Source: Escherichia coli (lineage in GTDB: Bacteria > Pseudomonadota > Gammaproteobacteria > Enterobacterales > Enterobacteriaceae). Taken from it: a DNA stretch of 64,000 bases. The notes under the pieces were generated by a model, which saw only the letters and a program-made list of their open reading frames with translations, did not search any database and was not told the origin of the DNA. The stretch lies in the NCBI RefSeq assembly GCF_003790525.1, contig NZ_CP033632.1. One strand, given 5' to 3'. Made by a program: the position numbers and the translations under genes. This document shows, one piece after another, positions 5,752-39,140 of the stretch; within the stretch, counting starts at the first letter, position 1; the number at the start of each line of letters is the position of its first letter.

Positions 5752-6022
5752 ACTGGCTTTTGACCGCAGAGCACTGAAGGAATGGCAGAAACTCGGCCAC
5801 ACCATCCGTGAACAATTCAAAAAGAAGCTGGCAGAACGGCTGGAAAATCCACGCGTACCCGCAGCCCGGTTACATGGTCATGCTGATCGCTATAAAATCA
5901 AACTTCGTGCATCTGGCTACAGACTTGTATATCAAGTCATTGATGAGAAAGTCGTTTTACTCGTTATTGCTGTTGGAAGAAGGGAAAGCAGCGAAGTTTA
6001 TCAGATTGCAGATATGCGCTGA
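5741..6022 (+). CDS. RelE/ParE-family toxin (StbE-like), 93 aa
   Basis: Translation ...RLHGHADRYKIKLRASGYRLVYQVIDEKVVLLVIAVGRRESSEVY is typical of RelE/ParE. Confidence 0.75.
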   Translation: MTYELAFDRRALKEWQKLGHTIREQFKKKLAERLENPRVPAARLHGHADRYKIKLRASGYRLVYQVIDEKVVLLVIAVGRRESSEVYQIADMR

Positions 6023-6208
6023 ACTGAAACCCGCCCCGTAATTCGCGGCTGCAGCCGCTCAGACGCGCAGATGCTACACACCGTCACGGCGTACCGTTCG
6101 CAAGCTTACGCGCTAACTGCGAAAGGCTAATTGCGTGTTGTTAGTCCGGTAATGGGCTTTGCAGGGAGGGGGGATGTCCCTGATCTTAATTAAGCTGGTT
6201 TGTTTCCG

Positions 6209-6350
6209 GGCACTGTTGCAAAGTTAGCGATGAGGCAGCCTTTTGTCTTATTCAAAGGCCTTACATTTCAAAAACTCTGCTTACCAGGCGCATTTCGCCT
6301 AGGGGATCACCATAATAAAATGCTGAGGCCTGGCCTTTGCGTAGTGCACG
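6209..6350 (-). mobile_element. IS26: IS26 stub (142 bp of the end distal to the tnp start)
   Basis: Matches 3637..3778 with one SNP (t at 6300); homology ends abruptly at 6350. Confidence 0.85.
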
Positions 6351-6518
6351 TATAGGAAATTGAAAAACCAGTCGATACCATTGTCCACGCCTTATGCCAC
6401 GTGAGCCTTTCTGCTTTTCCCACCACTCCGGTGGTTTCCCTCTCTGTATGGTCGATTTTTATACCGTAACAGGCTGTTTTTTATACTTTCACCGATTCCC
6501 GGGCACACTTAGCCTGTG

Positions 6519-7718
6519 TCAGGCCGGCATATACCTCAGTAGACTGATATCCCGCGCGTTTTTCTTCAGCCCTGATACATTCAGCCCCGCAATGGCCCGG
6601 CGGTATACCATCCGGCAGCCACACAGCACGCATTCGAACGGGTCACGACTCAGGAACTGTTTCACCATTTGTGCATAGCACACTTTCGCCACTGGTTCCG
6701 GTTTATCCATCCCCAGTGCACGGTACACCTGCGGCAGCTTCTCTCCACACACACGGTTGGCAAGGAACCCGAAGTACCTCACCATCTTAAAAAACTTCTC
6801 CGGGATGTGCTGTTTCAGCCTCGCGACCAGCTCACGCTGTGTCAGCGTTTCCGTCGCCGTTTCTCCCGTTTTGTGGTCCAGGTAACGGAAGCTCAGGCTT
6901 GCCCCTCCGTTGTAATGAGCCAGTCGGGAAGCCGCTATTGGTGGCTTCTTCAGATAACGACCCAGGTAGCGTGCCGTATTCCGCCCTCCGGCTGTCTTCT
7001 TCGACATGTACACATGCCAGTATTTTCCGCCGGATTTCAGCACCAGGCTTCTCCACTGTGATTCCGTCGTGATATGTGACAACGACTCCGGCATTGCCAT
7101 CCCCTCTGACCACGCTTTCAGAAGCAGCTGCCGCATATTCCACATCCACCGTGAACGCATCGCGTCTTTCAGGAAGCTCAGCTTTTTCCACTGACCATGC
7201 TTATTCAGACCTCCACAGGTTACAGACACATGTACATGCGGATGCCAGTTGAGACGACGGCCATACGTGTGGATGGCGCAGAAGATACCGGGTTCCAGCC
7301 CCCGTTTTCGGGCGGCATACAGCAGATTCTCCACCGCCAGACGGCACACGTCATTCAGCAGCCAGCGGTTGCTTTCGAACACCGGCCACAGCGTGTCCGG
7401 CAGGGTGAAGACCAGATGTACCCAGTCGCAGTCAGGAAGACGATTCAGCTGTGTTGCTGTCCACAGGTCTGTGGCCTTCTTTCCGCAGGACGGGCAGGCA
7501 CGGCTGCCGCATGAGTTGGTCAGGTACTTTACGTGCTGACAGTCCGGGTTATCACACCCGAACTCTTTTACACCCAGTATCCGTGTGCCGCAGGCCAGCA
7601 TTTTGGTGACGGCTTCAACCTCGATATCGCGCAGACCGCCCGCATCCAGGAAGGACGTCCAGCACTGGTTGGCTGTGAACAGACGTTTCAGAGGGCGGGG
7701 AGTAAAACCGGACAACAT
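6519..7718 (-). CDS. IS91-family (HUH rolling-circle) transposase, 399 aa
   Basis: N-terminal Cys cluster CDNPDCQHVKYLTNSCGSRACPSCGKK and IS91-like body, recalled not searched. Confidence 0.65.
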   Translation of the reverse strand: MLSGFTPRPLKRLFTANQCWTSFLDAGGLRDIEVEAVTKMLACGTRILGVKEFGCDNPDCQHVKYLTNSCGSRACPSCGKKATDLWTATQLNRLPDCDWVHLVFTLPDTLWPVFESNRWLLNDVCRLAVENLLYAARKRGLEPGIFCAIHTYGRRLNWHPHVHVSVTCGGLNKHGQWKKLSFLKDAMRSRWMWNMRQLLLKAWSEGMAMPESLSHITTESQWRSLVLKSGGKYWHVYMSKKTAGGRNTARYLGRYLKKPPIAASRLAHYNGGASLSFRYLDHKTGETATETLTQRELVARLKQHIPEKFFKMVRYFGFLANRVCGEKLPQVYRALGMDKPEPVAKVCYAQMVKQFLSRDPFECVLCGCRMVYRRAIAGLNVSGLKKNARDISLLRYMPA

Positions 7719-37528: not shown

Positions 37529-37555
37529 AGCCCAATCAGTGATTAAAGGTGTGAT

Positions 37556-38599
37556 GTGAAAGCCGTAATTACTCCATTTGTACAGAAAGAGCTTGGCCTC
37601 GCCACGTTCAAAGTGGATCAGGAGGTCAGAAAGCTGGTGGAGGCTGGCCGTAAATTTATTATGGAGCCGGTGCCGCGTGAGTTAATCGAGCACATGGAAG
37701 ACGGCCTCGTTGTTACCGAGCAAACCATGGCAACAAATGAGGCGTTGCAGCCGTTTTTTAACAGCGATGAACTGTTTCGCCGTATTGGTGGAATTGACGC
37801 GCTGGTGGCGTGGTTGCGTAGGAAAGAGGGTCAATGCCAGGCCGCAGATCGTAGTTGGTGTGACAACCATATTGTCCACGCTGAACGAGACAATAGCGCG
37901 GTGTTGTTGTGCTGGCATCACGATAACCATTACCGGATGCGTGGTTTTAATGAGCTGAAAGAAACGCTGCACAATAATCGCGTTAACTGGATACTGGATG
38001 TCGCCCGTCAGGAAATGGGCCTTTCAAATAGCCATGATTTAAGTATTCAGGAGCTGTGCTGGTGGGCTTTCATGCGCAACATGATGCACCTGATGCCGGA
38101 AGAAGTCTGCCGCATATCAATAAATAAGATGAAGGCTACTCCGCAGGATAGCGGACCTCTGAAAGAGGCGGATATTCGCCCGTATGACGATCGCGCTACA
38201 GCATATGTTCAGATGATGGAAGAACGCGCCGCGCCGATGCGTGCAAAAGTATGCCCTGTGGATGTTGACTCCGACCCTGGCATGGCGCATTTCAAAATAC
38301 CAAAACTGCAATCGCTAAAATTACCTGAGTACATGGACTTTGTTGCTTCCCGTCCATGCTGTGGGTGTGGAGCTGCGGGAGCTGGCGCTCACATTACGCC
38401 TTATATCGTTCGTCATAGTCGATTATGCGCGCATGACATTTACGCAATTCCTCTGTGCCAGTCATGCCAGCGTGATATTGAGCGTGACCGCGATAATTGG
38501 GAGAAGACGCACGGTAGGTTGGCGATGCATCAACGATTGTTCTTTGATTACGCGCTTGGAGTGGGCGTTATCACAAGTCATTCGTCGAGTGTTAGATAA
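37556..38599 (+). CDS. Cys-rich hypothetical protein, 347 aa (P1 pdcB position)
   Basis: C-terminal Cys/His cluster ...[12 protein letters not shown]...CQSCQRD... Confidence 0.5.
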
Positions 38600-38687
38600 A
38601 ATTGCTCTAATGTATTGCTATTTCTTTAATCGAGGGTATTATATTCCACGTTGATTAGTTGACATGGGCTAATCAGTAGGTGACAGG

Positions 38688-39140
38688 ATGTTACTTAACT
38701 GGCAGGGACGCCACTTCATGGAAATAAATCACTCACGAATAACATCGTACGAGATTGCGGATTACATGATCCGCACTAAATCTCTTCTATCAGCGAAAGA
38801 ACTCGCAGCAATTCTTGAAAAGGAATACCCGCATCTGGATGTCGATAAGCGCGATGTTTATCTGCGCTTAAAGGCTATCGCTGTGTCTAAGTATTCGTCT
38901 GTTTTGATAGATGACAGTACACGCCCACGTAGATTTCAGATCCACTCTCTGAATCCTGAATTCTTTCGCCGTAGCCGCGCTCCGCGCCGGTTTGATGAAA
39001 AACTCCAGAACGAACTCTATATGACGCAGGACGAAAAGGAACGCCGGGAGCACCAGCCTTGGGTAATGGCGCGTCAACTTTTCAATAAGGTGGCCCGTCA
39101 GCACCGTCATTACGGTAATGCCACATCCGCACGTATCTGA
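38688..39140 (+). CDS. lpa: Late promoter activator Lpa-like, 150 aa
   Basis: Positioned immediately upstream of pacA as in P1; sequence not verified from memory. Confidence 0.55.
   Translation: MLLNWQGRHFMEINHSRITSYEIADYMIRTKSLLSAKELAAILEKEYPHLDVDKRDVYLRLKAIAVSKYSSVLIDDSTRPRRFQIHSLNPEFFRRSRAPRRFDEKLQNELYMTQDEKERREHQPWVMARQLFNKVARQHRHYGNATSARI

Follow-up and report, generated by a model that had tools for sequence, protein, structure and literature searches.

In enzymes of the His-Me (HNH) finger superfamily, according to a review of the superfamily, a strand His acts as general base, while the metal is held by an Asn or His in the core helix together with a polar residue at +4. The review gives Asn or His, but not Gln, for the ligand in the first turn of that helix, and lineages without these residues, e.g. 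Smad MH1 and ENPP, are inactive binders. DUF968 is classed as a His-Me finger, and a role in recombination has been hypothesised for the family (PMC5714182). The subject here is a DUF968 protein encoded by an open reading frame (ORF) in a 64,000-nucleotide stretch of Escherichia coli contig NZ_CP033632.1 (the window, below), namely PdcB of phage P1. The literature describes pdcB as non-essential and of unknown function; prophages disrupted by pdcB::kan remain viable, with stable lysogens (PMC10067587, PMC10999674). Few genes of P1-like phage-plasmids are as highly conserved, however, and pdcB serves as a PCR (polymerase chain reaction) marker for them (PMC9603915); it is transcribed in P1vir infection (bioRxiv 10.64898/2025.12.28.696737). 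On this analysis PdcB is a YdfU that has diverged, not an orphan peculiar to P1. We lean towards the view that it derives from a His-Me nickase associated with recombination or replication, that it binds DNA and is stabilised by zinc, and that its canonical catalysis has been impaired or lost.

The identity of the gene is straightforward. The 347-amino acid (aa) product, read on the plus strand from a GTG start as the ORF list gives it, is identical to P1 PdcB (AAQ14077.1) at 344 of 347 positions, over the full length and with no gaps. The three differences, V4I, A225S and D313Y (with the residue of the window given first), all lie away from the conserved Cys and His positions. The surrounding 4.3 kilobases (kb) show 100% identity to Punavirus P1 MH422554 and 99.3% to the P1 reference AF234172/NC_005856, which annotates pdcB (‘post-doc’) at exactly the same place; the ORF is thus P1 pdcB and the surrounding part of the window is P1. 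The initial annotation had suspected as much from the position and had proposed alignment to PdcB as the check, naming full-length identity as what would tell against its account. As that identity is what the alignment gave, there is nothing new in the ORF, an already named gene in an already classified family, and the finding as such is an ordinary one. Invariance of the N-terminus MKA.ITPF.Q among orthologs supports the GTG start, for which an AAAGGTG shortly upstream probably provides the ribosome-binding site. Conservation, together with the substitution ratios given below, ruled out a chance ORF. In two database records with 100% identity to the window, MH422554.1 and MH445381.1, pdcB is unannotated despite the intact ORF (in the former, 1.1 kb without features, 1830-2988, separates PdcA and Lpa); the GTG start may be the reason.

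The assignment to family is similarly firm. The DUF968 match scores 170.4 bits, against a gathering threshold of 27.8, and covers the full model, and whole PdcB falls in phrog_96, labelled “HNH endonuclease” (E 1e-128). An exhaustive profile-free search yielded only 136 cluster representatives, and at the protein level full-length homologs, about 25% identical, occur in 155 phage records, typically those of lambdoid phages with the gene order rusA-ydfU-Q, e.g. gp44-45-46 of mEp390. Best matches for the predicted PdcB structure are to HNH proteins, P1 Ref (3plw, comparison value 8.0), then YbcO (3g27, 6.5), with the HNH domains of IscB, Cap5 and McrA at 5-6. The beta-beta-alpha-metal core fold of the superfamily is present. 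Profile comparisons with the C-terminal module (C-module) give E values of 2e-5 for YbcO, 1.3e-5 for Ref and 2.7e-7 (probability 93%) for phiNM1 Gp16, and its His-Me fold is confirmed. Other searches were less productive. Foldseek gave no significant match, and sequence searches of the PDB gave nothing at E<=10 either with the protein or with a 41-sequence profile. A Pfam scan at E<=1 matched DUF968 only and not PF16786 (RecA-dependent nuclease), NCBIfam produced only a meaningless beta-lactamase match (E 0.12), and PADLOC-DB, a collection devoted to anti-phage defence, gave no PdcB match at E<=1.

Some longer proteins share only the N-terminal ~220 aa and were checked for informative domain swaps, then discarded as their C-termini are structural fragments. 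In seven proteins (P0037, P0049, P0051, P0058, P0078, P0080 and P0134) a YdfU/PdcB-like N-terminal 160-300 aa is joined to phage structural domains, with portal, capsid, tail-tip (J), tail-collar or tail-fibre sequences as partners. Such fusions probably arose by deletion in decaying prophages or by chimeric assembly, and are unlikely to be genuine architectures.

A dense Cys/His cluster in the C-terminal third had drawn attention to the ORF. The strings quoted for it are present (aa 268-279 and aa 290-307), and that third does contain 7 Cys and 7 His (12.2%; the other thirds have 4.3% and 7.8%). However, with 8.1% Cys plus His in the whole protein, the density is not significant against shuffles of PdcB's own composition (P=0.18 for 9 such residues in 46 aa, and P=0.06 for Cys alone), and the cluster is meaningful through its conservation, not its density. 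C268, C271, H293, D294, C301 and C304 are invariant in 11 PdcB-like proteins at 38-81% identity, and C268 and D294 in all 41 full-length homologs. Invariant in the P1 clade are C268-x2-C271 and C301-x2-C304, i.e. a CxxC before strand 1 and a Cxx[CH] at the junction of strand 2 and the helix, so arranged that the zinc knuckle seen in many His-Me fingers, though not all, is recognisable in the PdcB sequence. From this pattern C268, C271, C301 and C304 are the putative zinc ligands of the C-module.

It is in the residues expected to perform catalysis that the P1 clade departs from its relatives. The canonical family motif is QPC..CG..ADDPHH.IGHG.GGMG.KAHD.F..PLCR.[CH]H.ELH, and to a hidden Markov model (HMM) built from canonical members only, P1 aligned with a single one-residue gap. 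(The span from C268 to D311 is 44 aa in P1 PdcB versus 45 aa in canonical members; given this, and the single-residue gap that suffices for the HMM, indels of 5-7 residues placed by MAFFT at aa 279-290 were dismissed as alignment artefacts.) In the HMM register the canonical H-H dyad corresponds to A278-H279 in P1 PdcB, the first helix His to Q305 and the second to E309. Orthologs from the P1 clade at 65-81% identity also have Q305, mostly have A309, and have A, N, D or G at 278 and R, Q, N or a deletion at 279. Positions 305 and 309 are each His in 32 of 33 canonical members. All four His (HH…H…H) occur in 53 of the 80 domain-containing sequences retrieved, and the deviants from this pattern are, with one exception, in the P1 clade. 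The reciprocal also holds, with all four Cys invariant in the P1 clade and canonical members often without C271, C301 or the residue at 304. At the first turn of the core helix PdcB has Q305, neither the Asn nor the His of the superfamily. The initial annotation's ‘metal-binding or nuclease-type module’ was therefore apt at the level of fold (DUF968, His-Me finger, structurally nearest P1 Ref and YbcO). As P1 has replacements at three of the four His that canonically serve catalysis or metal binding, and its nearest orthologs at all four, ‘metal-binding’, in the sense of structural zinc, is better supported than ‘nuclease’.

The loss of these residues is not accompanied by decay of the gene. 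Ratios of nonsynonymous to synonymous substitution (dN/dS, Nei-Gojobori) are 0.03-0.16 among the window copy, reference P1, JL22, RCS47, 673R5 and Cronobacter phage JK004, and 0-0.07 for the C-module among P1-like phages. PdcB is under strong purifying selection and is therefore functional, its degenerate finger included. Because the P1 clade lost the catalytic residues yet stays under such selection, a mainly DNA-binding role is the most likely one. The protein would comprise, in order, an N-terminal beta-rich region, a zinc beta-beta-alpha module (aa 94-130), long helices and the C-terminal zinc-knuckle finger (aa 266-311). In the finger C268, C271, C301 and C304 would hold a structural zinc, and the conserved H293-D294 pair would steady the loop between the strands. 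At the sites of the canonical H-H, H and H, which activate water and bind the catalytic metal, would be A278-H279, Q305 and E309. Such a protein would bind DNA, probably recognising DNA structure, and its nuclease activity would be weakened, non-canonical or absent. Of this account, the identity, family and fold of PdcB, the pattern of conservation, the selection and the synteny come directly from the analysis; the binding of zinc and of DNA, the loss of catalysis and the biological role are inferred.

Several considerations weigh against this. The register at 279-284 is ambiguous, MAFFT and hhalign both putting T-P-Y-I under D-P-H-H, so that Y283/I284 come to stand opposite the conserved strand His where the HMM has H279. 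In the minimal-gap HMM register, moreover, P1 keeps H279 at the general-base position, and YbcO likewise has A-H and not H-H. By analogy with YbcO, where D62 may do so, E309 and D307 could help bind Mg2+. With phiNM1 Gp16, mutants in the zinc ligands lose activity, H157A has no effect, and H185A and H189A have partial effects only, on toxicity (PMC12817073); loss of these His thus need not abolish function. No biochemical report on PdcB, YdfU or YbcO turned up in the literature searched. Much of this is what would be expected if PdcB were an active HNH endonuclease or nickase, with H279 as general base and Q305, D307 or E309 holding the metal, that acts on intermediates of recombination or replication, perhaps together with RecA in the manner of P1 Ref and phiNM1 Gp16. 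The His-Me fold, the placement of H279 under the second conserved His in the HMM register, the A-H dyad and the acidic residue that YbcO also has at the i+4 helix position, the presence in PdcB of all the zinc ligands essential in Gp16, the strong selection on the C-module and the hypothesised family role in recombination (PMC5714182) are all in keeping with activity. Nevertheless, the putative general base H279 is itself replaced or deleted in syntenic orthologs at 65-81% identity, and the helix His at 305 and 309 are missing throughout the P1 clade, as against four His in 53/80 family members. Gln is not among the metal ligands given by the superfamily review, and no activity has been reported. 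An active PdcB, the main rival reading, is possible but, on balance, unlikely.

The N-terminal half, for its part, is not without features. Its first 90 aa (predicted strands at 2-4, 7-10, 15-18 and 50-52) gave no recognisable fold match. Following them is a second Cys/His cluster at aa 94-125 (C94, C102 and C119-W-H-H-D-N-H125), overlooked on the first reading of the sequence although equally dense and at least as well conserved. Of the 41 family sequences, 40 have C94 and C119, W120 and D123 are nearly invariant, and positions 102 and 122 swap Cys and His across the family. That pattern has the character of a signature for a four-ligand zinc site, with C94, C/H102, C119 and H/C122 as putative ligands and the CWHHDN motif conserved, on a predicted unit comprising strands 106-111 and 114-119 and helix 120-129. 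Structure comparison values for this N-module are 5.0 with IscB, 4.8 with ScoMcrA, 3.8 with Ref, 3.7 with Cap5 and 3.6 with YbcO. Sequence profiles gave no link between the N-module and the C-module, and the N-module has no conserved catalytic His, none being conserved at the strand end. It is probably a second beta-beta-alpha zinc module, a non-catalytic one.

The gene order in the window is humD-phd-doc-pdcA-pdcB-Olpa/Plpa-lpa-pacA-pacB (Table 1), so the initial annotation's ‘between doc and lpa’ is correct with the qualification that pdcA intervenes on the doc side. Olpa/Plpa, with a promoter-like TTGCTA-16-TATTAT at 38615-38642, directly follow the pdcB stop codon and mark the 3′ boundary of its transcription unit. 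No convincing terminator was found within phd-doc-pdcA-pdcB, and it is therefore plausible that pdcB is co-transcribed with phd, doc and pdcA from Pphd. Of the sigma-70-like sites in the region, the best (ATGTCA-16-TATAAT, 10/12) is on the minus strand at 38638-38665, in the pdcB-lpa intergenic region and facing pdcB; such sites are no more numerous in the region than expected from shuffles, and this one may be due to chance. The product of pdcA belongs to phrog_3345 (function unknown; E 1e-43) and to no Pfam family, and its PADLOC match to PDC-M45B (E 0.024) is not significant.

Table 1. Features at and around pdcB, in coordinates of the window
Feature	Coordinates	Strand	Remarks
pdcA, upstream gene of 66 aa	37328..37528	+	overlaps last 17 nt of doc
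Shine-Dalgarno-like AAAGGTG	37545..37551	+	read from sequence; 4-6 nt 5′ of pdcB GTG
pdcB coding sequence (347 aa + stop)	37556..38599	+	GTG start; from ORF list
N-terminal region, aa 1-90	37556..37825	+	small beta-rich part, then short helices
N-module, aa 94-130	37835..37945	+	predicted four-ligand zinc site on beta-beta-alpha unit
Pfam DUF968 (PF06147) match, aa 161-337	38036..38566	+	hmmscan E 4.6e-50
C-module, aa 266-311	38351..38488	+	zinc-knuckle His-Me finger core; Cys/His cluster of the initial annotation
C1 operator Olpa (38601-38617) and promoter Plpa (38615-38642)	38601..38642	+	transferred from AF234172; sequence ATTGCTCTAATGTATTG
lpa (late promoter activator)	38688..39140	+	Pfam BPP1_LPA E 3e-57

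Comparison with other phages indicates which of these neighbours is retained. In Cronobacter phage JK004 the order pdcB-lpa-pacA-pacB is kept (67%, 67% and 70% identity), with no phd-doc upstream and, in place of pdcA, three small genes that look unrelated, and a relative only 38% identical to PdcB (P0020) is encoded directly upstream of an Lpa homolog on its contig. The conserved linkage of pdcB is to lpa, not to doc. Another member of the PdcB clade (P0022) is encoded on a phage-plasmid-like contig of ~95 kb, in a region that resembles early genes. Its DUF968 gene is there between a Metallophos (NinI-like) phosphatase gene and Ead/Ea22 genes, not beside lpa, with a Ref-like gene (PF16786 RecA_dep_nuc) ~5 kb upstream; the intervals concerned are 904-1482 and 6001-6996 of locus L007.

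The linkage to lpa invites the suggestion that PdcB has been exapted as a regulator or accessory of the late switch, a nuclease-derived DNA binder acting with or upstream of Lpa, as YdfU stands before Q. Retention of the adjacency in JK004 without phd-doc and in the 38% identical relative, the location of lambdoid homologs directly upstream of Q, and the precedent of Smad MH1 would fit. However, adjacency may merely reflect the distal end of an early operon, and lpa has its own C1-controlled promoter. Knock-down of pdcB by CRISPR interference left an efficiency of plating of 0.68, with lpa, pacA and pacB all essential (PMC10695390), so that with knock-down, as with disruption, plating is nearly normal. 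The Pfam scan revealed no helix-turn-helix or other regulator signature in PdcB. This less likely proposal is improbable, though not as much so as one in which PdcB is a packaging-associated HNH protein aiding the PacA/PacB pacase, as HK97 gp74 does with its terminase. HNH proteins associated with terminases form a known class (cited in PMC12817073), and pdcB is two genes upstream of pacA-pacB in an order that JK004 preserves. That role is nonetheless also less likely, indeed hardly credible, with pdcB dispensable where pacA and pacB are essential, lambdoid homologs in the ninR region far from terminase genes, and the catalytic residues degenerate.

A bolder version of the DNA-binding derivative, and one that we entertain only tentatively, is that P1-clade PdcB is nuclease-dead, with two tandem His-Me-finger-like zinc modules, and was exapted from a lambdoid YdfU recombination nuclease into a DNA- or protein-binding factor tied to the lpa-pacAB late/packaging block. 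Were it correct, there would be a phage counterpart to the nuclease-to-binder conversion of the Smad MH1 type, and the RefSeq/PHROGs ‘HNH endonuclease’ label would be wrong for the P1 clade. Even short of this, the evidence suggests that the automatic name overstates knowledge for that clade. The importance of all this is modest: an extremely conserved P1-like phage-plasmid gene of unknown function is involved, not a new kind of system. The increments are small, comprising erosion of the HNH His in the P1 clade under strong purifying selection, a probable second, conserved zinc module, the conserved pdcB-lpa linkage and a caution about the ‘HNH endonuclease’ name in RefSeq and PHROGs. Targets for mutagenesis are provided by H279, Q305, E309, the four Cys and the CWHHDN module.

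Set beside the described systems, the window protein and P1 PdcB are the same protein with the same neighbours. YdfU/DUF968 of lambdoid phages (mEp390 gp45; His-Me finger group 7, Jablonska et al. 2017) shows full-length homology at about 25% identity and the same domain order, N-module and C-terminal finger included. However, its canonical members have DPHH...KAHD...PLCR.[CH]H.ELH and are encoded between rusA and Q, whereas in the P1 clade the HH dyad (of which P1 keeps one His) and both helix His are lost, the four Cys are fixed, and the gene is upstream of lpa. E. coli DLP12 YbcO (PDB 3g27; PF07102/DUF1364) is a 96-aa single domain of a different Pfam family, and keeps a His after the CxxC (H58) where PdcB has Q305. 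P1 Ref (PDB 3plw; PF16786, E 2.3e-51) has an intact LHH...CRWHH and a disordered basic N-terminus; PdcB, in contrast, has a large structured N-terminal half and no PF16786 match, and the likeness is at the level of fold and superfamily only. The one relative with biochemistry is the RecA-stimulated nickase phiNM1 Gp16 (PF16784 HNHc_6, with a marginal DUF968 match; PMC12817073). It shares the C..C / H / C..H-H...H finger spacing and is matched by the canonical-member HMM (E 5e-10) and by the family profile (probability 93%). Its N-terminus is NinB/Orf-like and not PdcB-like, and it has H185 and H189 where PdcB has Q305 and E309.
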